From the NCBI GenBank assembly GCA_010093605.1, contig MU004188.1, positions 65,673 to 129,672 on the forward strand: a stretch of 64,000 nucleotides of DNA. Direction: 5' to 3'. Made by a program: the position numbers and the translations under genes. Below, piece by piece: positions 7,171-54,489 of the stretch. The notes beneath the pieces are model-generated. The model saw only the letters and a program-made list of their open reading frames with translations, did no database searches and was not told the origin of the DNA. Numbering within the stretch: the stretch's first letter is position 1; the number at the start of each line of letters is the position of its first letter. This DNA is from Lophium mytilinum (taxonomy: Eukaryota).

Positions 7171-7179
7171 CCTATAATC

Positions 7180-16485: not shown

Positions 16486-16866
16486 ATGCCCGGCCCACCA
16501 GACGGTTTCGCAAAAACGTGGCCCAAGATCCTCCTCCAGGTCGAAGGCGCCTGCATCTTCGGATCCACCATCTGGGCCTATTCGCGCTTCAACCAATCAT
16601 GGTGGACCTTTGCCGGACTCCTGCTCCTCCCAGATCTAGGCATGGTCGGATACCTCCGCGACACCACTTTGGGAGCTGTGGTGTATAACTCGGTGCACAC
16701 GGAAACGCCACCTATTTTGCTATTGTGCACGGCGCTAGCACAGGGTAGTGAGAAGGGAGCTGGGTTGGCGCTGTGTTGGCTTGCGCACATTGGGATGGAT
16801 CGCATGCTGGGGTTCGGGTTGAAGTATGGGACTGCGTTTGGACATACGCATTTGGGGAATATCTGA
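16486..16866 (+). CDS. DUF4260-family small membrane protein, 126 aa
   Basis: Motifs LL.VEG, PDLGMVGY, GAVVYNSVH, WLAHIGMDRMLGFGLKY and F.HTHLG, recognised as the DUF4260 pattern. Confidence 0.8.
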   Translation: MPGPPDGFAKTWPKILLQVEGACIFGSTIWAYSRFNQSWWTFAGLLLLPDLGMVGYLRDTTLGAVVYNSVHTETPPILLLCTALAQGSEKGAGLALCWLAHIGMDRMLGFGLKYGTAFGHTHLGNI

Positions 16867-29894: not shown

Positions 29895-30778
29895 AGAGCC
29901 GTCAGGGAGGAGTAGTGTGGACGTAGCAAGCACGTGTATATAGCCTCACCTTCCTCCCAGCCTCTTCCTCCCTTGTAAATCCTCACCATCGTCATGATCC
30001 AATATATCACGTATACGGCCTGTATCTCCTTTTTCCGTGACAAGAACGACCCAGAATCCTTTGGAAGGCAATGTGAGATCAAAAAGTTTAATTCAAAGTA
30101 AAAATCAAATCAAAAGAGTGGTTCGTAATGGGATATTCCTGAGAATGGTCCATATGAGCTTCATATTCTCGAGAAGTGATCTAGTGATGGCTTCGATCGT
30201 ACATACCTCAATCACTCAAGCCCATGCTTCGCTGTCGACTGCCCGAATAGCCAGAGAACCGTGATGAAACAACGCGAACATTTACGTAGATATTTTAGTT
30301 GGCGTTCCTCCTCGAATCTGTCCCAGATTGATAGATGGTTAGCTTGTCGTCGACCTTACACGAGCACTTCTCAGGTGGCCATTGTGCGGGAGGGCGTGCT
30401 GCGCGCCAAGGCGTGAAAGCTCTAAATGCGCGCTCGACAAGTATCTGCGACGAATAAGTTTGTGATTCACGCTAGCCGTGGTTTGCGGCATGTACTTACG
30501 ATGGCTGCTGGAGTGCTGTTGAAGCCGGCAGTGCGACGCTAGCGAGCTGAGGTTGGCGGAGAGTGAGGATTCGCGTACTTGAAGCAAGGCTAGAGGATGA
30601 GGGTTAAGAATCGAAGTAAGTGTGAAGCGTTTCTGTCCGAGAATCCAGGCTTCAAGGCTCGAGGAAAGGATAGCTGGACATCTGAAAAGAAATTGTATGA
30701 AGTGTTGAAACCCACATGTCGATTCGTGGTATATAGAGCTTCATAGTCATGACTACCCCGCATGTTCACTTCCCCTCT

Positions 30779-33700
30779 CTAATTCGACCTCTCTTGCTCC
30801 ATTTGAAACCTCGTCAAAAACCTGATATCATCGACCCCTTTCCGCTTCGTCTCCTCACTCTCACCATCTTTCCCATCCTCTAACCCCTCAACCCCCCATC
30901 CTCCTCCTCCGGGCGTATCGACAACAAACCAATCCCCTCTACCGACCTTGAAATCCTTCCTACCACCCACTCTGCACCACCTCCTCTTCCCGCCCTCCAT
31001 CTTTTTCGCGAGGAAATTGACCCCATTCGCGCCCTGCCCACCTCCTTTCATTCCATAAGGCCTGACCACCCTCCGCTCACTGACAACGCTCATCCCCATG
31101 TCCTTTCCGAACTCATACACCCTCCTGATCCCGTTTCCGCCATTCCATTTACCGCGTCCACCACTTCCGTCCCTGATCTCGAATTGGCGGAGCACGACAG
31201 GGTAGCGCTTCTCTAGAATCTCCGGATCCGTGATTCGCGTGTTCGTCATATGGATATGCACACCGCTCGTCCCATGCCACCCGGGTCCCGCGCCACTCCC
31301 ACCGCAGATCGTCTCGCCGAAGCCGAAACCAGAGTGCTCGGCGTCGCCGTCGTGGCCGAAGGAAACAACGTTGCAATCGCCTTGGCTGGCAGCGCAGGCT
31401 TCGAAGGCTCGGATCACGACATCGGTGACACGCTGGCTGGTAATGGGATTACCCGCGCACACAGCAGCAGTGGCGGAGGGGTTGAGGATACTGCCCTCTG
31501 GAATTGTGAATGTGAGGGGGCGGAGACAGCCTTCATTTAGGGGGATGTCTTGCGCGATGAGGCAGCGGAGAACATAAAGGGTAGCGGAGCGAGTGATTGC
31601 GGCTGGTGCATTGAAGGAGTGGTAGCCTTCCTCGCCTGTGCCTGTAAAGTCGAAGTGGGCGGATGCGGTGGTAGGGTCAATGGTGATGGTGAGGGCGATA
31701 GGGGTGCCGTCGTCCATGTAGTCGATGGCTGTTAGAGGCTGCCCTTTGCGTTCGGCGTGCGTACGGAGAAGGAAGGCGCGGACGGCAGATTCGGCATTGG
31801 AGGTGATGGCGCGCATGTTGAAGTGAACGGTTTCGAGACCATGTTCTCCTATCAAATCCGTAACCAGAGCAGCTCCTTTGGCATTAGCGGAGACTTGAGC
31901 TTTGAGATCGTTGAGGTTGTCGGCGAGGTTGCGGGTGCCGCTGCAGCCGGGGAACTGGGCTGGGTCATGAAGAAGTAGCTTTCGCATGCCCTCTTCGTCG
32001 AACTGCCCATCGCGGACAAGGAAATGAGATACAATTGTCGCGCCTTCTTCGAAAAGCTCGACACTGCCTGCCGGCATAGACCCTGGGAGTATACCGCCGA
32101 TTTCCTGGTGATGGCCTCGTGAAGCTGTGTAGAAAATAATCTCTTTGCCATCGGCAGAAAACACAGGCGTGATCGTAGTTATGTCTGGTAAGTGCGTTCC
32201 TCTGATGTATTGTTAGAATAGGTCTGGTAAGTTACTAGAGTCACAGGCTGGCTTACCCTGCAATCGGATGGTTGGAAACAACAACATCGCCAGGACGGAG
32301 TTTTCCTTCGTAGAGCTTGTGTTGATACATGACTGCCTGCTCCATGCTTCCCAAATGTACGGGCACGTGTGGAGCATTTGCAACCAATCGACCATCGGGG
32401 CTGAAAAGAGCACAACTGAAGTCCAGTCGTTCCTTGATGTTGACAGACACTGAGGTCTTTTGGAGGGCGTGACCCATCTGCTCCGCGATTGACATGAACC
32501 GATGAGCCATAACAGAAAGCTGAACGGGATCGACAACTCTGCTCGAAATATCAGACGTGGTTTCCGATACAGCACTCTTCCGATCAAGCTCGATAACTAC
32601 GTGGCGGTCGAGTATGATGGCCTTGGACTTTGGGCTCACGACAATTGTCTGGGTATCATCTAAAATAATGGCCGGCCCGGGGACAAGATCTCCAAGAGAA
32701 AGCGTTCCAAGAGTATACAGAGGCGCGGTAGACCAACCGTCCTCAAAATACATCTTGACGTTATCTACCGTTTTCTTCGATGATACAGGCGTAGGGGGGA
32801 ATTCGGATAGGTGCTTGCTCAGCGTAAAGGCGGGCTCAATCGATGGACTCCTTGCGGTAGCACGAACTCGTACGTCCTCAACTAAGACATCTCTACCAGG
32901 CATGATGAATGAGAACTGCCTCTTGTGCTCAGCAACAAAGGCCTCGGCAAAAGTCGCCGACTCGGGTCGTTGAATCATGAAAGTCGTGTCCGAGCCGGCA
33001 TATCGTAAGTTGAGGAAATGTTCAAAGCTCATAAGCTGCTCTGGAATTCCCTCGTGAGAAAGACTTTCGATAGCAGTCTTTTCGAGATTCGCAAGGCGCT
33101 GATCCAACTCTTCTAATGAGGTTGCGAGATTGGCAGAACACGGTTCTTGAACATCGTGAACGAGGTCTGCCAACGCCATACCGTAGGCCGATAGAACGGA
33201 CGAGTATCTGTGTACGAGGATCCGATCGATGCCGAGATTCGAAGCAATGGCCTGATGATATTTAGTGACGACGTTGAGCGAGAATGAGAAGGCTTACGCA
33301 AGCATGCTGTCCACCGGCTCCGCCAAATACTGCGAGATCATGATCAGACGTTCTGTAGCCCTTAGCCTCTGTAAGAGCCCTGATGGGCCGACACATGGTC
33401 TCATTGGCCACTTCAAGGAACCCAAGGGCGAGGTCTTCGATCGATTTGATCTTTCCGCCTGATGCTTCAAGGTCTGCGTTGACCACAAGTGCGAGTTTCT
33501 GGAAAGCTTCGCGAGCTCCCTCGTAGTCGAGGGGCTCGTTCTCACCCTTGCCGAATATATTTGGGAAGTAGTTGGCTTGTAATCGACCCAACACAAGATT
33601 GGCATCCGTGACAGTCAATGGGCCTCCCTTACGATATGCTACAGGACCTGGATGGGCACTGGCCGATTCAGGGCCAGCTAGAAAGAGACCGTTGCGGTAA

Positions 33701-34944
33701 GACAAAATACTCCCACCACCTGCCATGTTTTAGTGAACTATAAATCAGAAAATGTGGGGTGATAATACCTGCAGCAACCGTATCAACTTCAAGCTGAGGC
33801 GACTGAATTGTAATACCCGCCGTCATTGACTCAAAAGTATGTTCAAGAGTTCCAGCAAATCTCGAGACATCAGTGCTAGTACCGCCCATGTCGAAGCCAA
33901 TGATGGGTTTCTTCCTCTCCAAGTCGTAGCACGTGCGGCTCATGCCCACCACGCCCCCAGCCGGACCAGATAGAATAGCTTTGAGGCCGCTGAACTTCTG
34001 CCACCCAACCAAGCCACCGTCACTCTGCATGAACTCGCACCTAGCCCCCTTAGTGTCTTCGAGGTCGCCAACAAAGCCTTTCCTGAAGCCATCTACATAT
34101 GTGCGCGTGAGCGGAGTCAAGTATGCATCAGCAGTAGCTGAATAGCCTCTCGAGACAGCTTTGATCATAGGGAAGATTTGCGAGGAGAGCGAAATCTGGG
34201 TGAAGCCGATGTCTGAAGCGATCTTTGCGAGTTCGAGCTCATGGTCGGGGTAGGTATATGAATGCAGCAGTACCACAGCTAAAGACCTAACACCGGAATC
34301 GTAAAGCTGCTGTAATCCCTCTCTTGATTTTTTGATGTCTAAAGGTCGGAGAATTCGAATTGGCTCCCCTGAGAGCCCTTTCCGTAGATCGTACGCCTCG
34401 CCCTCAAGTGGGAATATGGGTGCCGCGTCCTCGGTGGCTGTATGAAGAGTAACTCGCTCGTCGATTTCCAGCACTTGTCTGAAGAGAGTCTCAGGTCTTC
34501 GGATGTTGAGATCGAACAGCCGTGGACGTGTTTGGTCACCTATGCGAAGAAGATCCTTGAATCCCTTGGTAACTACCAGAGCGCAGGGCGTCGACGAGCG
34601 CTCTAGTAATGCGTTCGTGGCCACAGTTGTGCCCATCTTGATACTTTCTACACCACTCAGCACAGGTCATACAGAATCAGCATTCTACGCCTTTGCTCAC
34701 CTATCCCGCTGGTATCAATTTTCTGCCCTCGAGGTAACTGTGTCCCTGTCGCAGTCTCCAGAATCCGTCTAATACCCTCCGTTGGCGCATCTGCGTAGTT
34801 GGCGGGGTCATTGCTCAGCAGCTTAATGAGGATATCCGGCTTTCCGGGAACGATGCCTAGACAGTCCGTGAATGTTCCTCCGCGGTCAATGGCGATTCGG
34901 ATGCGTGAAGCTTGGGAGCTCCGTCCATCATCTACAAAAGGCAT
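30779..34944 (-). CDS. 5-oxoprolinase/hydantoinase family ATP-dependent lactamase, about 1320 aa, 5 exons
   Basis: Exons 34944-34701, 34647-33769, 33719-33298, 33251-32257 and 32201-30779 splice in frame at GT-AG sites. Motifs [51 protein letters not shown] and TPGGGG. Confidence 0.95.
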
Positions 34945-35152
34945 GTTGGGAGTTGATCGATGAATAGTTCTTAGGCCAAAACAGTACCAGAACAGTTGAA
35001 GGAGAAGGAAAACGATGAGAGTTCAAAGGCTATGATACTGATATTTGAAAGTACTTCCCAGTGGGCAATCCACGCAGCCCTCGAATAAACCAACAACTCG
35101 TCCCTCACACGGCGCTACAATTCGCTGATGGGCACCAAAGCTCTGCTCGAGA

Positions 35153-35168
35153 CGGAAGCCCGCCTCCG
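35153..35168. promoter_or_regulatory. Putative Zn2Cys6 site CGG-N10-CCG (oxoprolinase/aminotransferase divergent promoter)
   Basis: CGG AAGCCCGCCT CCG; a second N10 match lies at 35292-35307. Confidence 0.45.
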
Positions 35169-35488
35169 CCCACCAGGCTGCATGATGATAACGACGACAG
35201 GGGAGCTCTGGAGGTGACAGGGTGGAGACAAGGTGGAGGGTTGATGGCAGCGGGGAAAGCTGTCGTCGGAGTTTCTTGTGCGAGGGTCGGGCGGGCATCC
35301 GCCGCCGCTCTCCACCTGCACCCAACCTCGACCATGTCGCGTCTAAACAATGCCCGAAAGCCTTAGGACACTATCGCCCCGAGCCATGCCATTATGACGC
35401 TCTTTTGAGGGGCCATTGAGGCCATGAAAGAAGCTCTGGTAAACACCACGCTTTTGTCCAATCTTCCTCAACATCACCCATCACGGCC

Positions 35489-36971
35489 ATGCTAACCCCA
35501 ATCAACCTCCAATTAGGCTGGCCATCGCCCTCTCTATTCCCCGCCTCCTCCCTCCTCGCCGGCGCGTCTACTGTCCTCACCGACCCCTCCAAGGTTGCAA
35601 GCGGTTTGATTTACGGCCCAGACGAGGGATACCTCCCTCTACGAAAGAGCGTCGCCAAATGGCTCTCTTCGACGTACGCTCACGGGAATGCTACACCAAA
35701 CTTTGAGCGGATATGCATCACGAACGGCGCATCGGGGAACTTGGGGAACATACTTGCAAAGTTCACAGATGCGAGGTACACGCGGAGGATATGGATGGTC
35801 GAGCCCTCGTATTTTCTAGCGTGTCCAATATTCCACGACGCGGGATTCGAGGGCAAGCTGAGGGGCGTGCCCGAGGACGAGGAGGGGTTGGACATTGACT
35901 TCCTGCGTTCCAGTCTCCAAGAAGCCGAGGACGAAGTCAAGAAGACCGGCGGCGAGGATGTCCCATTGCTGAAAGGCGGCGCTGGGTACGCGAAACTGTA
36001 CAAGCACGTCATATATCTCGTTCCAACCTTCTCGAATCCTTCGGCGAAGACGTTGAGTTTGCGACGGAGAGAAGAGCTGGTACGTCTAGCGAGGGAGTTT
36101 GACGCATTGGTCGTCACGGATGATGTTTACGATGTCCTCCGCTGGCCTGAAGACCCCAATGCCTCGGTGAGCAAGCTGGGAAAGCCGCCGCCAAGAATTG
36201 TAGACGTGGATACAACCTTAGATGGCGGTCCGGTAGACGAGTGGGGGAATACCGTGAGCAATGGAAGTTTCTCCAAGATCATTGCGCCGGGGTGTAGGGT
36301 GGGATGGGCAGAGGGAACTGCAGCTTTTGCTAAGCAGTTGTCACAAGTGTGAGTACTTCCAAACTGGGTGCGATTGAGGCTGCAATGCTAATACTTACTC
36401 TAGTGGCTCAACACGCTCTGGCGGGGCACCCAGCCATCTCGTCCCGACTTTCGTCCACGAAATGCTGGAAAATGGGTCATTGGATAAGCACATCGCCGAG
36501 ACACTCGTCCCAATTTACCGTGCTCGCTACTACGTCCTCATGGATGCTATCCGAGAGCATCTCGTGCCTCTAGGCTTCGAGCTCTCAGTAGGAAAGCCAT
36601 ACGAAGCCTCTCTCAAGAATGCCAGCAAAACCAACGGTACAAACGGTATCAATGGCACGAATGGCGTCCAACAGAACGGCACATCGAGTCCCATCCGAGA
36701 GGCAGGTGGCTTCTTTACCTACCTTCTTCTCCCCTCCGATATCCCCTCCGCAAGCGATCTCTCTGCGAAGGCACTGGAGAAATACGAGCTCAAGTTCGCC
36801 TTCGGAGACATGTTCCAGGTCGCTGGTGATGTTGGCAGCGCTGAAAGGGCTGCGAAGGGGTACGGAAGAGGCATACGGCTGTGCTGGGCGTGGCATACGG
36901 AGGATGATATCAAAGAGGGGATACGGCGGTTAGCTATGACTGCACAGGAAACGAAGAGTGGGAAGGCGTGA
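35489..36971 (+). CDS. PLP-dependent class I/II aminotransferase (Aro8/YER152C/AADAT-like), 1 intron
   Basis: YGPDEG, ITNGAS, PTFSNP, DDVYD and the PLP-Lys motif SFSKIIAPGCRVGW; C-terminal IRLCWA. Confidence 0.93.
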
Positions 36972-37680
36972 TAAAAAGTGTTTATAGTGTAAATACATTC
37001 GACAAATTCAACCGATACGGTCCATTGTGTGACTACTTGTGCAATGCGCGGACATTTAGTAAGGCGAAAGCTAGGGCCTAGCTGTGGTGCTCTTTTGGGC
37101 ATTCTTCACTGGTTACTGTAGTAGTTACTCCAGGCTTTTGTCAATGCTAACAATTCAGCTCACTGGCACTTGCATGATGCTGTCGGGGGTCCTCCAACAA
37201 GGTGACTAGTCAGTTAAATTACGGATTTTCTCGTTTAAGTTCTACCGCTTAATACTATAGCTTCAGGTAAAAGTCTAAATTACAGATCCTAGAATATGAC
37301 ATGGACTTCCGATTAGTCGAGTGCGCTGGGGCACCCCTAGCAGTGGCAAACTATTGTCACCCGTGCCAGTCTTGCGCCTGATTCGCATGCTTCGAGGTCT
37401 GTCCACTCGTGCAGATTTTGGAAGCAGCATCGAAGCACCCCAAACGGTGGCAGAGCGTGTCTAAGCATATCGTCAATTGTTATAATCTTACTACCCTATA
37501 CCCTGATTCGCCAATGTTGATCCCCCTCGTCCATATGAAGCCCTATATGACCCGCGTTCTCAGATACGAACCACTCGCAATCATAACTCTATGGTATTTC
37601 TCGTCCACGTTTTATCCGCTTTCTATGCATAACGTCATAAAAGTAAGACTAGACCATCTCCCTAATCTCAAGCAATGCTC

Positions 37681-38733
37681 CTACTTCAAAACCGGCCTCG
37701 ACTTCGCCTCAATCCTCCCACTCCTCCTCGTCTTCTCCTTCGTCGACTTTTGCACACCCCGGGGTTTCGATGCTCGCGCGGCCTTGATTGGCTTGTGAAT
37801 GCGCTGTATATTTGATCCTGCTGTGCGAGCGAAGAACTTGACGACCATCTCCGCCGCCCTCAAGCTGTCGTCGTCCGCGTCAATTGCTTCAAGCGCCTCG
37901 TCGATCCTAGTGTCGTCCCACCCGGCTATTGGACCAAAGACTTTGATCGTTTCCGAGTTCACGAATCTATCGAACTCGAAATGGCCCTGGAAGGTGAGGA
38001 CGCGCGAGGGTTGGTAGACGCCCTGGCAGTGGCAATGTGGCGTGCTGCCTAGCAGGACCCAATCCGAGGGAAGGGAAGACGAAGCGGGAGAGTGATGGGA
38101 TGGGGTGAGGACGACGTGGTCCGCGTGGACAAATTGGAGGCGGAGCGTCGAGGAGCTCGCGGCAGGGAGCTCTGCTGGGAGCGAAGACAGAGGGGAGGGT
38201 GATGGAGTGTCATCGGGGGTAGGAACTTGCTTCACTTCTTTGGCCGTCTTATTCACGCCTTCTGAATTTGATTCTGGGAACACCCCTAGGAACTCTTGAG
38301 CAAGCCTGATCTCGTGCACCCCGACCTCCCACCCGCTCCCATCCCTTTCAACCCTCACGCCATAGTCCCTCAGCAGGCTCTGACACACGATCTGGTGCCC
38401 AAAACAACTTCCGAAGATCTTGATCTGAGGGTAATTGGCATAGATGAACGATATCCAAGTGTCGAGTTGCTGTACCCAGGGGTCCTTGTCATATGACGAG
38501 GCAGCGGAGCCGGTGATGACGATGCCAGAGAGGGTGGAGAGAACGGTGGTTGGGGGATATTGGCCGGATACGACGTCGTAGGCGGTGGTAGTGATAGTGG
38601 GGTAGGAAAGTCGAGATGATGCGTCTTGCAGGAGGGATGTGAAGATATTGCTGTAGAGGCCGCGTTTAGCCAACACTGTGGGCACGGGGTTGTCCGTGTC
38701 TAGGATGGCGATATGGAGGGGTGGAGGGGCCAT
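37681..38733 (-). CDS. Class I glutamine amidotransferase-like hydrolase (gamma-glutamyl amide hydrolase-like), 350 aa
   Basis: ITGS, nucleophile elbow GSCFGHQ and QGHFE give an intact Cys-His-Glu triad. Stand-alone, with no synthase domain. Confidence 0.9.
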   Translation of the reverse strand: MAPPPLHIAILDTDNPVPTVLAKRGLYSNIFTSLLQDASSRLSYPTITTTAYDVVSGQYPPTTVLSTLSGIVITGSAASSYDKDPWVQQLDTWISFIYANYPQIKIFGSCFGHQIVCQSLLRDYGVRVERDGSGWEVGVHEIRLAQEFLGVFPESNSEGVNKTAKEVKQVPTPDDTPSPSPLSSLPAELPAASSSTLRLQFVHADHVVLTPSHHSPASSSLPSDWVLLGSTPHCHCQGVYQPSRVLTFQGHFEFDRFVNSETIKVFGPIAGWDDTRIDEALEAIDADDDSLRAAEMVVKFFARTAGSNIQRIHKPIKAARASKPRGVQKSTKEKTRRSGRIEAKSRPVLK

Positions 38734-39201
38734 TGTAAGATAGTATTTCTCCTTAGGTTCCGGAATGATGCTCTCAACATAGAGTATGGAAAGATAGAAT
38801 TTGACAGATATACGCAGCGTAGATAGATTATGTGAGCACTGGCACGTGACGTATCGATATATACTCAGCGATGAAGCTTCTCAGAGATGGGAGAGTGCCC
38901 TCAAAACTTGAGGTTGTATAACTTTCAAGATAGAGATGTTAGACAGCGATGGCAGTAATAGGCATTCGTAATAGGAAAGATTGCGCCAGAAAAACAACTC
39001 TTGTGCCTTCGAACACCAACAAGCACGCAGTCGCTACTTTTCGTGAGTCCATCATCAACCTCATCCCGAATGTGCTTCCCCATCGCACGTCCATCCGAAG
39101 CCCAGCACTCCGGATCGCAATGGTAACCAGAATTCGAGGTTGCAGGCGAAGTCGCCGATAGGAGAAAGCGGCCGAAGAGAGTGCGACGGCGCAGCTCAAG
39201 A

Positions 39202-39217
39202 CGGGCCTCTGGCTCCG
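39202..39217. promoter_or_regulatory. Putative Zn2Cys6 site CGG-N10-CCG (GATase/MFS divergent promoter)
   Basis: CGG GCCTCTGGCT CCG, followed by ATGG as in the ICL-like promoter site. Confidence 0.45.
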
Positions 39218-39647
39218 ATGGTCACGACTCGCGACACCATGCGTATTCGGCGACTCTCCGCAGTACGGGCAGCCTCGCCACCAGACAGCTGGAACAACTG
39301 GCACCACTCTTATCAGCAAATTCGATACTTCTGGAGAATGCCGGGACTCGCGCTGCGCTGGGAGCGAACTGGCAGCGGTCTATAGGTACCTATCTTGAAC
39401 TTATAGATACGTACGCGGCATCGGTGGCATCTCGGACGACGCGGAAGTCATCTCAGGAAGGGCTACAAAAGACGGGGGTCCCAGGCACTACGAAGACCAT
39501 ATGCAGCCGTTTGCCGATCACTGAGTTCCAACTCTCTGGTCCACTACTACTTCTTGACTCCATTCTGCTCCCACTGGGTGCTTCTACTTGTCTTCTTCAT
39601 ATCAACACCATCGGGACATCATACTATCCCAAAGCTCATAGCCTTCC

Positions 39648-41339
39648 ATGGACGACTCTAAAGACACCAAGATGACTATCAACCCGGGTGACGCAGGCGA
39701 TGCCGAGTCCATGAAGCATGGCTATATTTCCAACGACGTCGACATTGCTGCTGCTTATGCAGGCCAGCTCGATGGCGAGAATGCCTATACCCGCAAGGAA
39801 CAGGTTCGGCTGAGATGGAAGCTAGACTTGCGACTTGTGCCCCTGTTGTGGTTCAATGTCACCTTGGGTGCCATGGACAAAGTTACCACATCGACTGCTG
39901 CGCGTGAGTACGGAGAGAGATGACTCAGTTTCGCAATTGCTAACGGGGTCTCAGTCTACGGGATGAAGAAAGACTGCAATCTTACTGGTGATCGATACAG
40001 CTGGGTTGGCAGCGCCTTTTACGTAGGTGTAGAAAGAAGATATCAAGTCTGACAATTGCTAAATGGGCCATAGTTTGGATATCTCTTTTGGTGTCTCCCG
40101 TCCGGAAGTCTTCTGCAGCGATTTCCCATTGCGAAGCTGATGTTTGTGGCCCAATTGCTTTGGGGTGTCATTCTCATCGGCACGGGGTTTGCCAACAACT
40201 TTGCGACCCTCATTGCTCTTCGCGTCCTACTGGGTGTTCTGGAGGCTCCAATTGTCCCTGGTAACTTCTTAGTTCTTGGAATGTGGTACACTCGCAGAGA
40301 ACAGCCCCTCCGCACAGGTCTCATGTACACTGGCCTTTCCGTCTGCTTTACTGGGCCGTAAGTTCAAAATCACTTCTCTCACCATTCTGGATTCGTCTAA
40401 TAAACCCCTAGTATTGGCTACGGTATTGGTTTCATCGCCGGCGACCACGCATGGAGATCTATGTTCTGGATCACCGGTGCCATGACCATCGTTTGGGCCG
40501 TCATCATCGGTGTCTTCCTCCCCGACAATCCTGTCAACACCACGTTCATCAACGAGCGCCAAAAGGCTATCTTAGTTGAGCGACTCCGCGCCGACCAGAC
40601 CGGTGTTGAGAACAAGACTTTCAAGCGCGAGCAGATGATCGAAGCGCTACTAGACCCGAAGACTTGGCTCATGTTTCTCTTCAACATCTGGATCTCCATT
40701 CCCAACGGCGGTTTGACGAACTTTGCTCCACTCATCATCAAGGGGTTGGGCTACACCTCTCAGCGTTCAGTGCTGCTCACGATGCCTACCGGAATCATGC
40801 AGACCGCCAGCTCGTACATGTGCAACGGTGGCGTTTTCCTCTGCGCAAAGTACCTCCCCAAGTACCAGCTCCGTGGCGCCTGGGTAGCCTTCGGAATCAT
40901 CGTGGGCCTGATCTCATCCGTCTTCCTCTACACGCTGCCACTACATAACTACAACGGTCGCCTCGCAGCCCTTTACATGTCTTACTTTTACCTCGGACCT
41001 TACATCGTCGCGCTCGGTATCAACACAGCCAACACGGCAGGCCACACAAAGAAGGTCACCACCAACGCGCTCATCTTCATCTCCTACTGCGTCTCCAACA
41101 TCATCGCGCCGCAATTCTTCAAGGCTGAGCAGGCACCGCTTTACCCGCTGGGTATGGGTGCTATTCTTGGAAGCTATGTGCTAAGTCTGATTACGATTGC
41201 GGCGTACTGCGGATACTGCAAGTGGGAGAATACTAGGAGGGATCGGGTTGATTTGGCGAAGGATGCGAGGGTGCATGCGGATACTGATTTCAAGGACTTG
41301 ACGGATAAGCAAAATCCCCATTTTAGATATGTGTTTTAA
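39648..41339 (+). CDS. MFS anion:cation symporter, Dal5/allantoate permease family, multi-exon
   Basis: KLDLRLVP, MDK, YSWVGSAFY, LRVLLGVLEA, WYTRREQPLR, LPDNP, NTAGHTKK and FKDLTDKQNPHFRY. Confidence 0.93.
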
Positions 41340-41620
41340 GTCTAGGATAAACATATTTTGGGTACTAGATATGTGATCTGTATATACGAGGATAGGTGGG
41401 ATGATCTTTGGGATATTTGCGAGCGTGTTTTTGGGAATATAATGAACGAACATTATTTATGAACCTTTCTACAGTTAGTGCATCGTCACAGGTCTATGTA
41501 ACTCACGTCTAGTGCTTCAACATCTTCTATTCAGCATCTACATCTTGTTCCCTAGTGCTGGCTACATCTATGTCTATTCCTGCAAAAGTCAATCTGTCCA
41601 CCCACTATAGTCTTGTAAGC

Positions 41621-43714
41621 TCAGCCCCGGAGGACTTCCATCGCAGCTTCTAGAATTTTTTTCTCGGCTTTCAGCATCGATCGACAGCGCTTTGTCTCTC
41701 CATCTTCCCCGGCAATCCTCTCAAGCTGATCGTCGTCAAGACCCAGGATCAGCTCCGAGCTGAAGACCTTCAGTGGGCTATCGTCTCCCTCAAGGAGGAA
41801 GTGACTGATAACCTGCCTGCACACGACATCTACGAATCGCTTTCTGGATACCTTGTAGTAGCTCATGAGAATGTCAAGAATATCGTCTCGCACCTGCTGG
41901 GCGTTGTCTTTCGCCTGATTCAGACGACCTTGTCGCTTCTTCTGAACTTCCGCATTGAAATAGTGGTTGTATGTGGACGGCCTTGCGTCTCGTTCAATGC
42001 GCAGCAGAAACCGGGCTTGCTCCATCGCTTGGACATAAGCCTTACGAAGCTCATCGAGAAGGATGTCCTCCCATAGCTGTTCACGGACCTGCCTCTCGGT
42101 GCAGATATGAGCCAGAAGCTTGTAGATATAGTCGTGCACGAGCGCGATCGATTCGCTGACGTGGGCAAGGACGAGCGGTTCCCATTTCTCGGATTGTTCC
42201 TTGAATGTGATACCAAGAATCGCGCTGGAGAAAGTCCCTAATTCTGACCCACGGTTCGATTGGTACACCATATCGATGTGATCCAAGATTGAAATACTAC
42301 CGAACGGTGGCAGTCGGAACGCTGTTGGTTGCGGGCACCTGTAAGCGTTGGTATCAAGGATGTCGTGAAGTTCAGGGTAAGTCGAAATTGGAACTTCGAA
42401 GGGTACGTTTCCTTCTCCGACCTCAGCTGCAGTTGCGTCGTATGCTTTTTCTCCTTCGTCATCCCACTTGACCGAAAAGTGTCGCTTGTGCCCTTTCCTC
42501 CAGAAGTCGTTTGCAAATCGCTCATTACTCTTCGTAATATTCGTGATAAGCTTCAAGCCTGGAAGTTCTGTGAAGACACTTTCGCTGCTGTAGTACCCGT
42601 TCAGTGCGCACTGGGTAATCGCCTGGAATCTGGATCCCAGTCTCCCGAGATACATCCTTTGAGAGCTCTGCTCCGTACGAGACGGCCCCATTTTCTCCAG
42701 CTCTTCTCGGCGCTGACGCAATTGCTTTCCAACATCGGCCTTGACATGCGGAAATTCTTTCTTCGAAATGCTCATGAGGAGATCCTGGAGCCGGGTCTTG
42801 AGCGATCCAATGCCACACCGTCCGGAGCTTTCTATCCGTTGCCACCGTGGCTCCCTAAAGAACGTTTCTTCCTTGGCCAGTCGCTCTGCCTTTGTGGAAT
42901 GCTGATCATCTGCACTGCGGTTCTTCACAATACCGTACCCCAACTTCAGTGGGTTCCTTCTCCCGAGAACAAGCTCCATGACCGCATCTTGCATGGCGTT
43001 CTCAGTTACCAGATCAGGTTTCGTGAGCACTCCCATGGTTCTCGTTCCGCCCGGATCAGCAACTTCTGCCATTTTCAGGATCTCCTGGGTGGTAACATCG
43101 ACGTTAGATGGGAGGACCGCTAAAATGACAGTCCGGCTGTTCCCCATGTATGACTCCACTATGGTTTTGACCAAAGCAACATCGCTATCTGTAGTAAGAG
43201 GCGGAGATGAGACGCGAAATATGCCGGGCACATCTATTACCGTAAAGTGCTCTTCGTCAGGTCCACTGATCTCGATCTTGAGGATGTCCTCGCTGAACGC
43301 TTGTAGGCCAGAGTCGGTGTCTTCTGCCGTCATCCTGATTCCCATGACTATGTTCGCCTCCGCGATGATGCTACCAAGGCCTTCGTTTTCAAGATTTGAG
43401 ATGTTTCGCTTGAACGCCCGAAGTCGAATATCCACCGCGGCATCTGCACCTGGTCGGGGAATAATAGATACCACAACCTTCTTCTCAGACTCACGACGAC
43501 AAGAAATCTGTGTGGCATAGCGGGTACAGAGGCCGGGAGCTTGAGGGAAGGAAAATCCTGTTAGACTCTCCAAGAGTGAGGACTTTCCAGATGACTGATC
43601 ACCCACGACGACAAGCTGAGGTAAATCTATGGTCTTGACATTTAATTCGCGTAGCTTGTCGATTTTGTTGAGATAGGACTGGTTGGCCAGGCCGCGCGAG
43701 CTACTATCTCCCAT
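41621..43714 (-). CDS. Mx-like dynamin-family GTPase, intronless
   Basis: LPQLVVVGDQSSGKSS (G1), CTR (G2), DVPG (G3), TKPD (G4) and GED SYYKVSRKRFVD. Likely start MGDSS at 43714; the ORF is open from 43921. Confidence 0.92.
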   Translation of the reverse strand: MGDSSSRGLANQSYLNKIDKLRELNVKTIDLPQLVVVGDQSSGKSSLLESLTGFSFPQAPGLCTRYATQISCRRESEKKVVVSIIPRPGADAAVDIRLRAFKRNISNLENEGLGSIIAEANIVMGIRMTAEDTDSGLQAFSEDILKIEISGPDEEHFTVIDVPGIFRVSSPPLTTDSDVALVKTIVESYMGNSRTVILAVLPSNVDVTTQEILKMAEVADPGGTRTMGVLTKPDLVTENAMQDAVMELVLGRRNPLKLGYGIVKNRSADDQHSTKAERLAKEETFFREPRWQRIESSGRCGIGSLKTRLQDLLMSISKKEFPHVKADVGKQLRQRREELEKMGPSRTEQSSQRMYLGRLGSRFQAITQCALNGYYSSESVFTELPGLKLITNITKSNERFANDFWRKGHKRHFSVKWDDEGEKAYDATAAEVGEGNVPFEVPISTYPELHDILDTNAYRCPQPTAFRLPPFGSISILDHIDMVYQSNRGSELGTFSSAILGITFKEQSEKWEPLVLAHVSESIALVHDYIYKLLAHICTERQVREQLWEDILLDELRKAYVQAMEQARFLLRIERDARPSTYNHYFNAEVQKKRQGRLNQAKDNAQQVRDDILDILMSYYKVSRKRFVDVVCRQVISHFLLEGDDSPLKVFSSELILGLDDDQLERIAGEDGETKRCRSMLKAEKKILEAAMEVLRG

Positions 43715-44326
43715 TGCTCGAGAGAAGGCGAGAAATAAGGGACGAGAAGTACCTAGGCCTAGAGAAGCTAGCCGTGGGGTGGAGAGATGAGAAAGCATGT
43801 TCAATACGCCACTTAACATTGAAGCTATAAAGGCATTTCCCATTGAGAGCAAAACACGCCCTAAGTTTGCCAAAATCGCTTCAACTATCAAACGAACTCC
43901 AACCCTTTCGGTTCCATACATGTTTCTACCTTTCCGGAAGAGAGTAGTAGTAGCGAATCTTAGCTAAGGGAAACATTTCATCTCTAGATTGTAGGAGTGT
44001 TTTCTTCCAAGGAAAAGAAAACCTAGCAATGGCAAGGAATATTGAGTTGTCTAACGGCATGGACCTAAGTTTGTGAAGGAGAGCACTCACCTAGGTAGTA
44101 GCCTGCAAAAGAGGTGTTGTTACGGAAACCAGAAATTAGCTACAGATCTGCGAAATTCCCACCACCAACTCCCAAAAGCCTTAGCCCCTTCTCAACTACC
44201 CGTAATTCCCAAACGACGTCGCAATCTTCGGCATCTCTCCCGCCCCGCAGCGCGCTCGCCACGAGGTCGGTCCCAAGCCCAGGGTCCCGGCCCACTCCCG
44301 TCGCACGAATCGGCCCTGTTCCTAGC

Positions 44327-44354
44327 CTCCATCGGACTCCCGAGTCCGATGGAG
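44327..44354. promoter_or_regulatory. Perfect 13-bp inverted repeat containing TCGG-N10-CCGA, upstream of the ICL-like gene
   Basis: CTCCATCGGACTC-CC-GAGTCCGATGGAG, about 260 bp upstream of the ATG at 44614. Confidence 0.6.
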
Positions 44355-44613
44355 CCTGCGGTGCTATCACGGATACCAACAACGCGACCTCGGGCAAAGC
44401 GACGCGTTGAGATAGGAAAAGAATGGAGAAATGGCGGGGGCTCATAACAATACCTAGCGAATAGCGAATATCAATATACTATAGTGCCCCTCACTCACCC
44501 CTCATCACCTCATCGCCCCTCATCACTCCAGCATTTCAATGCTCTCCAAGCTTACATCCACTATATTCAGAACCTCAGACCCAGAAAGTAAAGCTACAGA
44601 CGCAAACAACACG

Positions 44614-46371
44614 ATGCCGAAACTAGCCATCTCTGTGGAGCAAGAGCAGGCGGCGTTTGAGGAAGAGGTCAAGGCGATCGAGAAGCAGTGGAGTGAGCGG
44701 CCGCATTTGAAACGGTAAACCCTCCAACCCTTCGCCATGATCTATGCTGCATGTACTGATGGATGTAACTATGAAGCCCATACACTGCCCGGACAATCGC
44801 CGCACTCCGCAACACCATCCCCCAATCCTACGCCTCAAGCGTGCAAGGTCGAAAACTCTGGAACCAACTTAACGCCCACAATGCCGCTGGGACGTGCGAA
44901 CTGACCTTCGGCACCACCGACCCAGTCGTCGTGTCCCAGATGGCGAAACACCAGCAGAGCGTCTACGTCTCCGGCGCCCTCTGCGGCTTCAGCGAAGTCT
45001 CCTTCCCCGGCATGGATGCGTGCGACTACCCGTGGGACACTGTTCCCAAGGTCGTGAAAAAGGTCTTCTCGTCGCAGCTGTGGCACGACCAGCGGCAACG
45101 CCAGTACCGGATGCGCCACCCAGTCTCCGAGCGCGCGGAGCTGGAGAATTGGGACTACCTAGCGCCGATCGTAGCGGACGGGGACATGGGTTTCGGGAAC
45201 TTGACCAGCACGATGAAGATGGCGAAGGAGTTCGTGGAGAGTGGGGTAGCGATGATCCATTTGGATGATTTGGCGATTGGGATGAAGAAGTTCACGGTTG
45301 GACAGGTGAGCTTCCCAGAATATACTTACCGAGCTCTGGGACTAATGTTGAGTTTATAGGGACGAACCGTGGTGCCTACATCCGAGTACTTGGATCGGTT
45401 GAAGGCGGTACGGATGCAGTTCGATGTTATGGGGTAAGTTTTTGATTTGAAGCGTGAAGATTGATATGACGCTGACTAGTGTGAATAGTGCTGATACGCT
45501 TCTGTTGTGCCGTTGTGACATCGACCATTCCGAGTTCATCTCCAGTGTTGTAGACGCCCGCGACCACGAGTATGTGCTGGGTGCCACTCGGCAAGTGCGG
45601 CCACTCAAGGACGTGCTTGCGGATGCGCAGGCTGTTGGCGAGGACCTTAAAGTGGTCCGTAGTGCATGGAAAGCATCTGCTGGTCTTCTCACCTACGATG
45701 ATGCCGTCAAGGCGCAAGCCTCTGAGGACCAGTTCAAAACATACAAGCTGGAGTTGTCGAAGGCTAACCCTTCGATCGCCTCCCGCCGGGAGATCGCGTC
45801 AAAGGTCCTCAGCAAGGACATCTTCTTTGACTGGGAGCTGCCGCGCTCTTATGTTGGCCAGTATATGTTCGCGCCAACGGTCAAGACCATCATCGAGCGT
45901 GCGATTGCTGCTGCGCCCCTCGGAGACGTCACCTGGGCTCGCATGGACTCGCCTGTCTGGAAGGACATCGTTGAGTTCCACACCGAGGTTCGCAAAGTCT
46001 TCCCAGACCGACTTTTCGCTTTTGGTTACACAGGCGATTATGACTACGGAAAGGCTGGTTTCTCGGAGTCCGCAATCAAGACGCTGCATCTAGACTTGGC
46101 AAAGCTAGGTGTCGTGTGGCAAGTCCAGCCCATCTGGAGTCTGCAAGGGCTAAATCTCTTGACGGAGCAATTCGGCAAGCTGTTTGCAGAGGAAGGTATT
46201 GCGGGCTACATCCGGACAGTGCAGACGCCGGCTTTAGCTACGAAGCCAATGACCGACGGGTTTGAGAAGCTAAGCTACTGTGGTGGATATCTGGCAGATG
46301 CGTTCTTCGAGACGGTGGCAGGCGAGGAGATAGTCGAGAAAGGGAGTGCGCCAAACACTAAGAGGCATTGA
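44614..46371 (+). CDS. Non-canonical isocitrate lyase-family protein, 4 exons
   Basis: Exons 44614-44714, 44777-45305, 45360-45433 and 45489-46371. ICL-like segments FEEEVKAIEKQW..KRPY, YVSG, DYPWDTVPKVV, DYLAPIVADGDMGFG, RDHEYVLGAT and IFFDWELPR. The catalytic loop reads KKFTV. Confidence 0.88.
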
Positions 46372-46560
46372 TTGGAAGCGCTTGATTTTGGGATGTAAAT
46401 AGAAATAGAAGTAAATTATCGTGATTCCCTAGAGTTTGGACCGTTCAAGCGTTGGCTACAAGTTGCGACTACACCTCAAAGACGCATAATGATGAGGGAA
46501 ACCGAAGTAGGTAGGTTTGAACTTGTTTGCGTAGTCTGAGTTTCTCTAGAAGGTAAACGA

Positions 46561-48986
46561 TCAAGTCCATGAATCGTAATCAAAGATACCTGGAAACGAA
46601 GGCATCTCCGCATCGAAAGCATTGGCCCCATCAATACTGTAAAATTGCGGCGCTGAGAACGGCATCTCGAACGTCATATGCGTGGGTGGCGGAGACGGTG
46701 GCGGACGGCTCAACTGGGGCGTCGGCATGATGCTTTCTCTCATGGCGGACTCCCTCGGCCCAGGAATGGAGGATACAGTCTGTAGCGGCGTGCTTTTCGG
46801 CCGTGGAAAGTCGTCCTCCATCATTTCCTCGATCATTCGCATGACGCTTCGATGCACAATTAGACAGCGCACATCAGGGAGAGCTTCCCGGAGCTTTGTC
46901 GCTGATTTGTCTGATATCCGCACCGGTGGTCTGCTAGGGCGATCAACGCTGAAAAGCCACGTCAGTAGAATTCGCAAACGAAAGATGAGCAATGTTGCCT
47001 ACAGAGGTATCTCTCGTGCTAGTAATTCAAAGACGTCTCGCAGACAGTCTGCCTTCGGCCAGCGATCGGCCATGATTGCGAGAATGTTGGAACACGCTCG
47101 GAGCGCGTCAGATACGTCGGGAGAATCGTAATTATCTGTCCGACACTGGGGCGGGGTTGCCCAAAAGCAGTATAGAAGAGTTATGCCCGCTTGGAATTGC
47201 ACCAGTAGCTGATTTAAGATTAGAGACTAGCGATACATCGTTACGGTGGTGAGAACTTACTCCAAGCCAAGCTGTCAAGAGGTTAGCATGGTCAGATAGA
47301 TACTGGAAAGGGTGAGAACATACGTTGGGCGATTTGCCGGTCCATTTGCGTTTTGCGGAACATGAGGCAAGCTTGACTAGACGCCTGCACCGCAAAATCT
47401 CCCGCCGGGCCTATTACGTTTTGCTTGGTGGGTCGATAAAGCATGACCAATGTATAGTGGTAGATCATAGCAAGCCACCTTTGACTGGTGTATCCCTTAG
47501 ATCTCGAGTCTGAAAAGCTTTGTACTTGAGACTTCCAATTGTTCAGTTCAGTAAGAATCCGAATCCGCCATTCCGGCGAGGACTCGAATTGCGCGGCATA
47601 GTTCCAGTGCAGTGTGTAGCCTAGGATCTCGGACTGGATTCGCCTGCATTGAATGATATGCAATGAAGGCGAGACACAGGTATATCCGGGACTATCAGGT
47701 ATATCTGCATCTGCCGGCGTAGTAGCTGTAAGCTGCAGAAGATCCGAATCCTCTACGTTCGCATAGACCTTTGCTGTAATGGTACTGTCTGGAATTGAGG
47801 TAGGGAGGTCAAAAGAGAAAGAGGCCAACCGATCGAGCTTATAGGCGCACCAAAAGGTCCTCCGCCGTAGCTGGTTTTGTAGGTGGATGGTCGCGTTGAT
47901 CGGTTCTGGCTCCATTTCCGCGAGATGAAATTGCGCTTGCACGCAATAACGAATGATAGTTGAAGAAAGGGACATGATACGATCCGTAGAGCTTCTGTGC
48001 AATGCATGCATCGCCATGACCAGGTAGGCTTGAATCTGCAGGATATGATCGCCTTGTCTGAGTACGGAAGGCAGGAGGGTGACGCCTTGTCGATAGAAGA
48101 TCTGAGAGTCGAACTTCCCCACCCGAGGTATTAAAAGTAGCGCAGTCGCATATACCATATTGACAAAGAAGCCTTTCCATGCCTGACGCCCATAGTCGCT
48201 AGGCGGACATGTCTTCCAAGTAGAATGCCAGAAGAGGAACGTCTCCCAATGGAAGAAGGGATACTGAGCTTGAGCTCTTTCGTGGTAGGCATCTATGAGA
48301 AGCTCCTCTACTTCAAGTGGAAGCTGAGCCACAAGGCTATGTGGTAGGAAGGTAGCCTTAGTGGAAGATACGTGGTGGAGATTTGGAGAGTCCGCAAGTG
48401 CAGCGTCGTCCCGTGACGCAGCTGGCGATGTGACGAGTCCTAAGATAAGATGGTCCAGATCGGAATCATCGTCAAGACCAAGATTCGAAACATGTCGCAA
48501 TTGGGCTTCATTAGACATGGTAGATATGCGGGTATTCGTAGCACTTCGGGATGTCGATGCTGGAGATTCAGCAATGTGGAAGTCGCCGGGCGATTCAGAG
48601 ATGACTTCTGACGGCGCTGGACCAACCATGCCATTCGAAGCTGACCGCTCCAAGTTACTGGTTGAAGGGCGGTTCTGGTGATCGGCCAGCTGGGCTCTTG
48701 CATCGTTCAAGAGGGATGACCGTCTTCGAATATGATCAAGACTCTGCTGCGGATCTAGGGCTTCCAATTCGGCAATACGTTCCTCGAGGGCTCGAATGTA
48801 CTCCCCTTCAGCATGGCCTCTTGGGGCAGGCTCGGTGGCGACGCACTCTTCTCCAGACTTCCTGCAGTTCCTACATGGCCGACTCTCATCACACTTCTGC
48901 TTTCGGTGGCGGCATCTCTTGCAGGCTAGGGTGCGGGCCCTCTTCGCTGGCCGCGAGCTGTCCGACTGCGATTCCTCATGATCCAT
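46561..48986 (-). CDS. Zn2Cys6 transcription factor with fungal-specific TF domain (Ppr1/UaY-like architecture)
   Basis: CKRCRHRKQKCD..PCRNC..C, coiled coil YIRALEERIAELE and RRRTFWCAYKLDR; short 3' introns. Confidence 0.92.
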
Positions 48987-49632
48987 AAGTGTTGGCTGGG
49001 TATGTGGGCAAGAAGAGGGGGCACATGTTGCAGGTACTGGTGCTGGAGAAGGGTCCACTCGTTATCTTCGGATCCGCTAGCATATATCGAGAGTCGGTCC
49101 GATGAGGGGAAGCTGAAGTCGCTTTCTGTTCATCAGAACGTGACACCGCGAGTACGTCGCCTAATTAGACTTAAGAACCCATTGCTGGAATCTGATAATC
49201 TGTTTGAAATAATACATTTGAAGCCTAAGTCTGCTAAGAACCACTCTCACGTGACCCGTCGATCGAGCATGGAGCTTTCCGTCCGACTCCCAGCTTCAAC
49301 CTCAACTGCACATCGACCACCGTCTGCTCTCCTAGCAGTTCCACCCAGCGCTTCCAATGCCGCGGGATTTGACAATGGAGCTTCCTCCTTGAGGCTTTGA
49401 GGCTCCCTACCTGGCTGTCTGTTCCATTGCCTTGCTCGTTTTGCCATGCAATGGCCAGAGTTCCGCGCGTCGCCTTCACAACACCGTAGCTTCGAGTCGC
49501 ATCCATACCTCGAACATGCCCCTATGTATCTTCACGGATTCTAATCCGAGGATACGTAACGCGAAGGCCTAGGAGCGATGACCACGATGGTCAGAATGGG
49601 GTCCCTCGAGGCTCTCCGCAAAGGTACATACA

Positions 49633-54205: not shown

Positions 54206-54489
54206 TCTCACCCTGGACCGGAGCTTCAATTCGAAGATGTGTCGCGTGTCTGAGGCTGCGGAGACGGTCAAACTTGAGAGGAAACGAAAGGTTAAATGCC
54301 AGCCTTTTTGGGCAGGAAGTGATCCGCAAGACAATGGAAAATGCGTTTGCTTGAACTTGGTTTGATGAAGAGGCTTCTATTGAAGAAGCCAGTCAAGTGA
54401 GCTAAGATGGGAATGTTCAAGGTCCAAGGCTGAGACTATAGAGATGTGGAATTCTCAATATACGGTTGATATTCAGATGTCGTGCACAT

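Follow-up and report, generated by a model that had tools for sequence, protein, structure and literature searches.

Described systems closest to the cluster

The fungal clusters for proline (prn), quinate (qut), and nicotinate (hxn) bring together a permease, enzymes, and an in-cluster zinc-finger regulator, with bidirectional promoters among their genes. A locus of the same plan occupies positions 30779-48986 of a 64,000-nucleotide stretch of DNA from the filamentous ascomycete Lophium mytilinum (NCBI GenBank assembly GCA_010093605.1, contig MU004188.1, positions 65,673 to 129,672 of the forward strand), which is referred to as the window and in whose numbering all coordinates are given. The locus comprises an oxoprolinase of the ATP-dependent lactamase family (30779..34944, minus strand; 1320 amino acids, five exons), a fold-type I aminotransferase of the Aro8/KAT-II/LysN group (~35489..36971, plus strand; ~475 amino acids), a stand-alone hydrolase resembling the class I glutamine amidotransferases (GATase-like; 37681..38733, minus strand; 350 amino acids, no intron), a major facilitator superfamily (MFS) transporter of the anion:cation symporter type (DAL5-like, TC 2.A.1.14; 39648..41339, plus strand; 511 amino acids, four exons), a relative of isocitrate lyase (ICL) that lacks the catalytic cysteine (44614..46371, plus strand; 528 amino acids), and a Zn2Cys6 regulator (46561..48986, minus strand; ~755 amino acids). 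The likeness to prn, qut, and hxn extends to an inverted CGG-repeat candidate site; the enzyme set, however, is different. These six families constitute a fungal metabolic gene cluster that is conserved beyond close relatives and through rearrangement.

Individual pairings within the cluster also have described counterparts. Its combination of a lactamase with an aminotransferase echoes the caprolactam pathway of Pseudomonas jessenii (PMC6061476). Genes designated iclBX ('isocitrate lyase') and mfsBX (MFS) ride with the TD-BX tyrosine-degradation clusters of Exophiala dermatitidis and Baudoinia, so that an ICL-named gene and an MFS gene travel together as they do here (PMC3914699); the likeness of iclBX is by description only. 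In contrast to the TD-BX clusters, the flanks of 10 of the related loci described below revealed neither an hppD- nor an hmg-type family. Finally, the nitrogen-related genes transferred into wine yeasts are reported to include an oxoprolinase, an allantoate-type permease, and a PUT3-like factor (PMC4476156).

Conserved linkage across three fungal classes

To follow the cluster through other fungi, an alignment of 20 ICL-like orthologues was scanned against metagenome contigs, 10-kb flanks were taken on each side of every match, and the partner genes were sought by tblastn with the exon translations of the window. The 28 loci recovered represent 13 lineages at 95% and 6 at 85% amino-acid identity of the ICL-like protein. 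At least one partner gene accompanies the ICL-like gene in 26 of them; the other two contigs measure 1.5 and 3.3 kb. Thirteen loci reach 15 kb or more. All of these have the aminotransferase, 11 have a transporter of the same MFS clade (it is absent from L026 and L027), nine have the oxoprolinase, and nine have the GATase-like gene, one of these last matches being weak. A clear orthologue of the regulator was found in the loci with a window-like gene order, in L025, and in L026 and L027; L028 has only a weak Zn-cluster match.

The genes occur in at least five orders, namely the window-like order, a second order (order B) with two orientations of the GATase-like gene, and those of L025, L026/L027, and L028. 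In the window-like order a leftward oxoprolinase gene is followed by a rightward aminotransferase, a leftward GATase-like gene, rightward MFS and ICL-like genes, and a leftward regulator. Order B opens with a leftward MFS and a rightward ICL-like gene, continues with a GATase-like gene in either orientation or with none, and ends with a leftward aminotransferase and a rightward oxoprolinase gene. Named genomes show the same association. Judged by their NCBI locus tags, the ICL-like gene and the oxoprolinase gene lie three to six genes apart in four fungi: Fusarium nematophilum (ICL-like _013240, oxoprolinase _013246, with the GATase-like gene at _013244), F. graminum (_10304 and _10300), F. 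sarcochroum (_10040 and _10037), and Claussenomyces (_003902 and _003906). In Neocucurbitaria cava the GATase-like gene is _001345 and the oxoprolinase gene _001343. The preliminary description of the locus had set co-localization in other genomes as a test beforehand, and the linkage was indeed found to be kept, in several orders and in at least three fungal classes. The six families thus stay linked through rearrangement across Dothideomycetes, Sordariomycetes, and Leotiomycetes, and linkage that survives repeated rearrangement across three classes is the signature of a selected gene cluster.

In three reduced clusters (L026-L028) the aminotransferase and ICL-like genes remain together with a regulator, joined in L028 by the MFS gene. 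Since the aminotransferase/ICL-like pair persists there, it is this pair, rather than the lactamase, that forms the core of the cluster, and the lactamase and amidase supply feeder steps. No recurrent seventh family emerged from a Pfam search of 117 otherwise unexplained open reading frames (ORFs) in the flanks of 10 loci. The flanking genes vary from locus to locus and include SDR, GMC oxidoreductase, ribosomal L4, PBP, and Ap4A phosphorylase genes, as well as other MFS and aminotransferase genes. An Ap4A-phosphorylase-like gene lies between the GATase-like and aminotransferase genes in L022 (13762-14205), and the near-identical loci L018 and L023 have the same gap. Near the cluster genes, L026 carries an additional class I/II aminotransferase and a further MFS gene, and L028 an amino-acid permease and a second Zn-cluster factor.

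The Cys-less relative of isocitrate lyase

The ICL-like protein shares full-length homology with the canonical fungal ICLs and methylisocitrate lyases (MCLs) (PF00463; 5e9h, 1dqu). Pfam ICL matches both of its large exons (180 and 149 bits), and its matches to solved fungal ICLs extend over the full length (E = 6e-97 for 5e9h, 3e-96 for 1dqu). Its orthologue in Mytilinidion resinicola (P0004), which is 96% identical and also 528 amino acids long, scores 348 bits against TIGR01346, above the cut-off of 276. Full-length homology above curated cut-offs therefore places the protein in the ICL family (PF00463/TIGR01346), and passing the TIGR01346 cut-off explains the public names 'isocitrate lyase' and '2-methylisocitrate lyase'.

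Membership of the family does not extend to its catalytic loop. Where active ICLs and MCLs carry KKCGH with its general-acid cysteine, as the solved fungal ICLs do, the window protein reads KKFTVGQ, so that its preliminary designation as 'Cys-less' was correct. Aligned with 5e9h, it also has SGA for SGW, LDDL for IEDQ, KKFTV for KKCGH, WAR for WME, FGYTGDYDY for YNLSPSFNW, and ADGDMGFGN for ADADTGHGG. Compared with the canonical enzymes, the KKF(T/S)xG loop and the replacements of Trp by Ala, Glu by Arg, and NxSxS by GYTGD are fixed across the clade, whereas YxSG, both Asp residues of ADxD, the KK pair, and RxD are common to both. Of the predicted contacts of the Mg-carboxylate head, ADGD, KK, and RCD are kept by alignment and IEDQ is LDDL; the SGW Trp, the WME Glu, and the NxSxS contact residues of ICL are not kept in the alignment to 5e9h. 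We take the retained residues to bind Mg together with the carboxylate 'head' (alpha-hydroxy or oxo), and the replaced ones to be the general-acid Cys and the succinate pocket; this assignment of residues to Mg, glyoxylate, and succinate contacts is taken over from the structural literature on ICL. The genomic setting differs from that of the canonical enzymes as well, for the ICL-like gene keeps company with the aminotransferase in all of the longer loci and no glyoxylate- or methylcitrate-cycle genes lie beside it in the loci studied here.

These features characterize a clade. Across 20 full-length orthologues, 58-77% identical to the first sequence, K204-x-F206-T207 and R386 are invariant, and the KKF(T/S) loop is present in all 25 loci in which the loop was found, including those that are only 42-47% identical. 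The replacements in this clade, invariant or nearly so in the 20 orthologues, are not decay. In an exhaustive HMMER search of a protein library clustered at 50% identity, the KKCGH loop was paired with SGW in 70 of the 150 representatives listed, and these and the solved ICLs read KKCGH or KRCGH; among the same representatives KKF-type loops were paired with SGA or SGG, and intermediate forms were few. The longer canonical ICLs came from this search, the search with the last-exon ORF having covered proteins of 168-536 amino acids. Further non-Cys representatives of the family carry the loops KKTGA, KKFKA, and KRFDH (P0378, P0395, P0439) with SGA or SGG for SGW, so that the radiation of Cys-less ICL relatives is wider than the clade studied here.

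From these alignments the ICL-like protein belongs to a conserved Cys-less clade with what appears to be a rebuilt succinate pocket, and this clade is, as its residues indicate, either neofunctionalized or inactivated. We infer that it would keep Mg-carboxylate binding, accept a different 'tail', and use Cys-free chemistry. The superfamily has members, oxaloacetate decarboxylase and phosphonopyruvate hydrolase, that form a Mg-bound pyruvate enolate.

A dedicated oxoprolinase

The cluster oxoprolinase has the fused four-domain architecture of OXP1/OPLAH and of ATP-dependent lactamases such as caprolactamase CapAB (Pfam Hydant_A_N, Hydantoinase_A, Hydant_A_C, and Hydantoinase_B). LamA of Aspergillus nidulans is also counted among the ATP-dependent lactamases. 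The spliced length of the cluster enzyme, 1320 amino acids, compares with 1315-1322 in the orthologues, and its best match is a 5-oxoprolinase of M. resinicola (97%), whose public model has 1247 amino acids as against the 1320 obtained from RNA joints here.

Identity over the last exon (Hydantoinase_B) falls into two bands, 62-81% in cluster-bearing species and 56-60% in Aspergillus, Exophiala, Zasmidium, Hortaea, and others. A maximum-likelihood tree was built from 39 full-length oxoprolinases (18 of the high and 21 of the low band) chosen from the best 120 matches listed. The 18 cluster-type sequences form one clade (SH-like approximate likelihood ratio test 100, stem 0.69), apart from a 16-member clade of Dothideo-, Leotio-, and Eurotiomycetes and from further small clades. 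The cluster enzyme accordingly falls outside the generally distributed fungal oxoprolinase clade, in a set of sequences that holds no named reference for yeast OXP1. Unlike OXP1/OPLAH, it represents a separate, patchy clade embedded in a six-gene cluster; its place in the tree marks it as a probable dedicated, patchily distributed paralogue and not the general enzyme, and a distinct paralogue clade argues against a sole housekeeping OXP1. Within the cluster-type clade, Dothideomycete sequences are nested among Sordariomycete ones, and Coleophoma stands apart from the other Leotiomycetes. Either horizontal transfer of the cluster or poor resolution of the tree could underlie this pattern.

The aminotransferase, the GATase-like hydrolase, and the transporter

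The aminotransferase matches Pfam Aminotran_1_2 at 50.9 bits, and its PLP-binding lysine motif SFSK aligns with TFSK of 1x0m, in agreement with the SxSK pattern. Its best matches in the Protein Data Bank (PDB) are archaeal multi-substrate and 2-aminoadipate/kynurenine aminotransferases (E ~1e-22), and it lies nearest to the group of archaeal multi-substrate enzymes, LysN, AADAT/KAT-II, and Aro8. The ESM Atlas returned only generic 'aminotransferase class I/II' clusters.

The GATase-like protein matches Pfam GATase weakly, at 16.8 bits against a cut-off of 22.8; PF00117 is recorded for many of its orthologues. A Cys-His-Glu triad (C110, H251, E253; GSCFGHQ ... QGHFEF) is invariant in 23 sequences. 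A profile of the orthologues found its best solved relative in plant gamma-glutamyl peptidase 1 (GGP1; 9k7i), with E = 3.4e-13 over ~95 profile positions, and one other, weaker solved match in the glutamine amidotransferase 3m3p (E = 0.0012). The cluster protein thus shares the triad and the GxCxGxQ nucleophile elbow with GGP1 and other stand-alone class I GATase hydrolases; in contrast to GGP1, the match covers only those ~95 positions, and the window protein falls below the Pfam gathering score. The window protein also differs in a low-complexity insert, which is absent from the L. mytilinum model and much shorter in most other orthologues. It is otherwise identical to the L. mytilinum protein, the single difference being a gene-model gap. 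Compared with the RNA contig, the public L. mytilinum GATase model lacks 29 codons; this model and that of the M. resinicola oxoprolinase (P0244 and P0124) both disagree with the RNA contigs.

The transporter matches Pfam MFS_1 and, below the cut-off of that model, NCBIfam TIGR00893 ('2A0114', 106 bits). It is the most conserved partner, the main exon being 66-80% identical in the longer matches across loci. Transporters of the anion:cation symporter (DAL5-like) type carry anionic compounds, often N-blocked ones, and such cargo would fit the uptake of a lactam-carboxylate or an acidic amino acid.

The regulator and a candidate promoter palindrome

The regulator combines Pfam Zn_clus and Fungal_trans domains and begins MDHEES...CKRCRHRKQKC. 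CGG-N10-CCG ranked first by enrichment among the inverted dyads of 31 segments of cluster promoter, and its instances share the longer palindrome TCGGAC-N6-GTCCGA; ungapped k-mer enrichment in the cluster promoters yielded nothing convincing. TCGG-N10-CCGA occurs 10 times in 264 kb (window positions 10001-64000 and 10 loci), and nine of the occurrences lie in cluster promoters. In the window a perfect palindrome, TCGGACTCCCGAGTCCGA, stands upstream of the ICL-like gene (44332..44349) as a candidate regulator site. Looser CGG-N10-CCG sites are found twice in the bidirectional oxoprolinase/aminotransferase promoter (35153-35168 and 35292-35307) and once in the GATase/MFS promoter (39202..39217). 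The palindrome is a candidate site for the in-cluster regulator, and its distribution is not proof of co-regulation.

Gene models and transcripts

The preliminary description had listed six genes between 30779 and 48986, as two divergent pairs and a convergent one. All six families were located by Pfam searches of stop-to-stop ORFs in those places and orientations, and spliced RNA contigs refine the models. The oxoprolinase and aminotransferase genes diverge with ~480-540 bp between them, the GATase-like and MFS genes diverge with ~0.9 kb between them, and the ICL-like gene is convergent with the regulator. The RNA evidence comes from one public run (X1), used as contigs aligned to 30001-50000, the depth of which gives no gene ranking or condition comparison. 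The contigs contain 12 canonical splice joints in this interval and hence represent processed RNA; the joints fall in the oxoprolinase, aminotransferase, MFS, and regulator genes.

For the oxoprolinase, four CT..AC joints define the exons 34944-34701, 34647-33767, 33717-33297, 33250-32257, and 32201-30779, whose lengths sum to 3963 nt in frame. The aminotransferase has an intron at 36349-36403 and an in-frame ATG at 35489. One short contig end carries an alternative GT..AG splice (35439-35516) that would remove this ATG and leave no in-frame start. Over the GATase-like gene the RNA contig is colinear with the genome. Three GT..AG joints in the contigs give the MFS introns (39904-39954, 40023-40073, 40358-40411). 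The joints of the regulator define the exons 48986-47324, 47271-47261, 47208-47003, and 46948-46561, with the ATG at 48986 and the stop at 46561; of its three introns, two of 52 nt enclose the 11-nt micro-exon 47261-47271, which is required in the sole GT..AG model whose frame stays open to the stop at 46561 and which yields 755 amino acids.

The ICL-like gene was modelled by homology-guided splicing, and its exons (44614-44714, 44777-45305, 45360-45433, 45489-46371) rest on predicted splice signals and orthologues. The sole RNA contig that covers it (43860-46948) is unspliced, all three predicted introns being kept, and is continuous with the spliced minus-strand exons of the regulator. It could stem from a regulator transcript that extends, as antisense or read-through RNA, over the ICL-like gene, or from the merging of convergent transcripts.

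The original gene list omitted a seventh gene within the span, an intact ORF of 780 codons for a dynamin-family GTPase (41621..43963, minus strand; Pfam Dynamin_N, Dynamin_M, and GED) that stands between the MFS and ICL-like genes. It has no tblastn match in any of the 28 loci, and in the window-like loci the ICL-like gene follows the MFS gene directly, after ~0.75 kb. Hence the dynamin gene appears to be a lineage-specific insertion and not a member of the cluster. The RNA contigs leave the stretch 42007-43340 of this gene without cover.

The cluster sits in a variable region of the window. Two HET-domain (heterokaryon incompatibility) genes flank the region (11608-14061 and 52700-54376), and positions 1-9000 form an AT-rich block with a GC content of 12-25% as against ~50% elsewhere, which resembles repeat DNA degraded by repeat-induced point mutation. 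Other genes of the window are NmrA-like (14732-15511), DUF4260 (16378-16866), and questin-oxidase-like (24053-24721), and an ORF at 19255-19710 partially matches a purine/cytosine permease profile.

A proposed pathway and its alternatives

Together, the family assignments point to a conserved fungal metabolic cluster, most likely catabolic and under its own Zn2Cys6 regulator, with a pathway to which we give about an even chance; its substrate and the reaction of the ICL-like protein are the conjectural parts. In this pathway the DAL5-type anion symporter would import an acidic, glutamate-like nitrogen compound. The oxoprolinase paralogue would open the gamma-lactam (pyroglutamate-type) form of the compound at the expense of ATP, and the GGP-like hydrolase of the class I amidotransferase fold would cleave its gamma-amide or gamma-glutamyl form. 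The Aro8/AADAT-type aminotransferase would then convert the resulting amino-dicarboxylate to a 2-oxo acid, on which the Cys-less ICL-family enzyme might carry out Mg-dependent C-C cleavage or a related step. Such a step would need no general-acid cysteine if it were, for example, a retro-aldol reaction or a beta-decarboxylation that leaves pyruvate enolate. The sequence of import, lactam or amide hydrolysis, transamination, and Mg-dependent C-C cleavage put forward in the preliminary description is consistent with the family assignments. The 4-hydroxy(-4-methyl)glutamate scheme with retro-aldol cleavage proposed there fits this frame and the Trp-to-Ala change at the head site, as a matter of chemical reasoning only.

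A bolder version, which we hold tentatively and consider doubtful as a whole, is that the Cys-less ICL clade would be a new activity of the ICL/PEP-mutase superfamily, a Mg-dependent retro-aldolase or beta-decarboxylase acting on the 2-oxo acid formed by its partner aminotransferase. The cluster would then be an unrecognized, widespread pathway of plant-associated ascomycetes for substituted glutamates (4-hydroxy-, 4-methylene-, and 4-hydroxy-4-methyl-) and their glutamine and pyroglutamate forms, controlled by a Put3-like, palindrome-binding switch.

Several observations weigh against the proposed pathway or limit what can be drawn from it. The substrates, products, and activities of all the cluster enzymes are predictions from sequence. 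Loss of the Cys, His, Glu, and Asn/Ser residues could equally mean a non-catalytic relative of ICL, the mapping of residues to contacts is taken over from the literature on ICL structures, and a sense, spliced ICL-like transcript was not seen in the X1 contigs. Neither the oxoprolinase nor the GATase-like gene was found within 10 kb on each side in L026-L028, which makes the lactam and amide steps optional. No clear regulator orthologue stands in the order-B loci, of which L005, L009, and L017 have weak Zn-cluster matches and L018, L022, L023, and L019 none. As for the palindrome, cluster promoters make up 29.6 kb, or 11% of the sequence searched, and the binomial p of 2.6e-8 for the concentration of sites in them overstates its significance, the motif having been refined post hoc, L004/L008 and L005/L009 being related pairs, and promoters differing from coding DNA in composition. 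The window holds a single strict site, and its count of three matches to the looser pattern was reached by four of 100 shuffles of the window.

The cluster might instead serve plain utilization of 5-oxoproline or gamma-glutamyl compounds, with import of pyroglutamate or gamma-glutamyl peptides by the MFS transporter, conversion to ordinary glutamate and on to 2-oxoglutarate, and an ICL relative that is non-catalytic (a scaffold or sensor) or peripheral. This account would make good sense of an ICL relative without its catalytic Cys and His, of a GATase-like protein whose best solved relative is a gamma-glutamyl peptidase, and of an oxoprolinase whose Hydantoinase_B exon retains ~56-60% identity with the general clade, a level that points to a closely similar substrate. 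Published reports are also in its favour: carriers of the DAL5 family include an importer of gamma-Glu-Met (PMC7617739), and the genes of the transferred wine-yeast regions mentioned above, with their oxoprolinase, permease, and PUT3-like factor, are all linked to nitrogen use (PMC4476156). Nevertheless, ordinary glutamate needs no special downstream enzyme. Constancy is highest for the aminotransferase and the ICL-like gene, both of which persist in L026-L028, and the changed ICL pocket residues are invariant across classes, which fits a defined ligand pocket better than decay. We therefore judge plain 5-oxoproline use to be rather unlikely. The same scheme one carbon longer, in which 6-oxopipecolate (the lactam of 2-aminoadipate) and homoglutamine would yield 2-aminoadipate and then 2-oxoadipate in a lysine- or pipecolate-derived route, seems improbable. 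The solved relatives of the aminotransferase include the 2-aminoadipate aminotransferases LysN, human AADAT/KAT II, and Aro8; larger lactams are among the substrates of the oxoprolinase family, and the cluster oxoprolinase is matched by caprolactamase models, far below their cut-offs; and a pathway of caprolactamase plus aminotransferase is described (PMC6061476). However, an ICL-type enzyme has no obvious role on 2-oxoadipate, glutamate and aromatic amino acids are likewise accepted by this group of aminotransferases, and the data do not distinguish C5 from C6 substrates.

Plant GGP1 acts on glutathione conjugates, and C-S lyases share the aminotransferase fold. With GGP1 as the best solved relative of the GATase-like protein, the cluster could accordingly be pictured as a biosynthetic or conjugate-processing unit, for instance for glutathione conjugates, in which the GGP-like hydrolase would remove gamma-Glu, an aminotransferase-fold C-S lyase would follow, and the oxoprolinase would recycle 5-oxoproline. 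Yet the flanks of 10 loci hold no recurrent gene for a glutathione transferase, dipeptidase, synthase, or synthetase, the transporter belongs to an importer family, and a permease with hydrolases and a regulator is typical of catabolic clusters, all of which makes a conjugate-processing role very improbable. Chance adjacency of unrelated genes might be suspected from the unrelated dynamin gene inside the span and from the variable region with its HET genes and AT-rich block, but linkage that recurs across 13 lineages, with several gene orders, and in named genomes belonging to three classes contradicts it and leaves it scarcely credible.

Implications

Full-text literature searches, with subscription journals and the supplementary tables of fungal transcriptome papers outside their scope, found neither this cluster nor a Cys-less fungal ICL described. 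The cluster is real, widespread, and apparently undescribed, with an orphan enzyme clade at its centre and parts drawn from known families. Its residues imply that the ICL relative, publicly named 'isocitrate lyase' or 'mitochondrial 2-methylisocitrate lyase', is probably capable of neither function. If it is unfit as an ICL or MCL, the metabolic models of many plant-associated fungi would carry a false glyoxylate- or methylcitrate-cycle paralogue. The cluster offers a testable handle on this orphan clade, since it brings along a transporter, a regulator for which there is a candidate binding site, and three partner enzymes, and these enzymes restrict the substrate to lactams, amides, or amino acids that resemble glutamate. 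Confirmation of the pathway would add a new route to nitrogen and carbon sources in fungal ecology and a new type of reaction to a well-studied enzyme superfamily.

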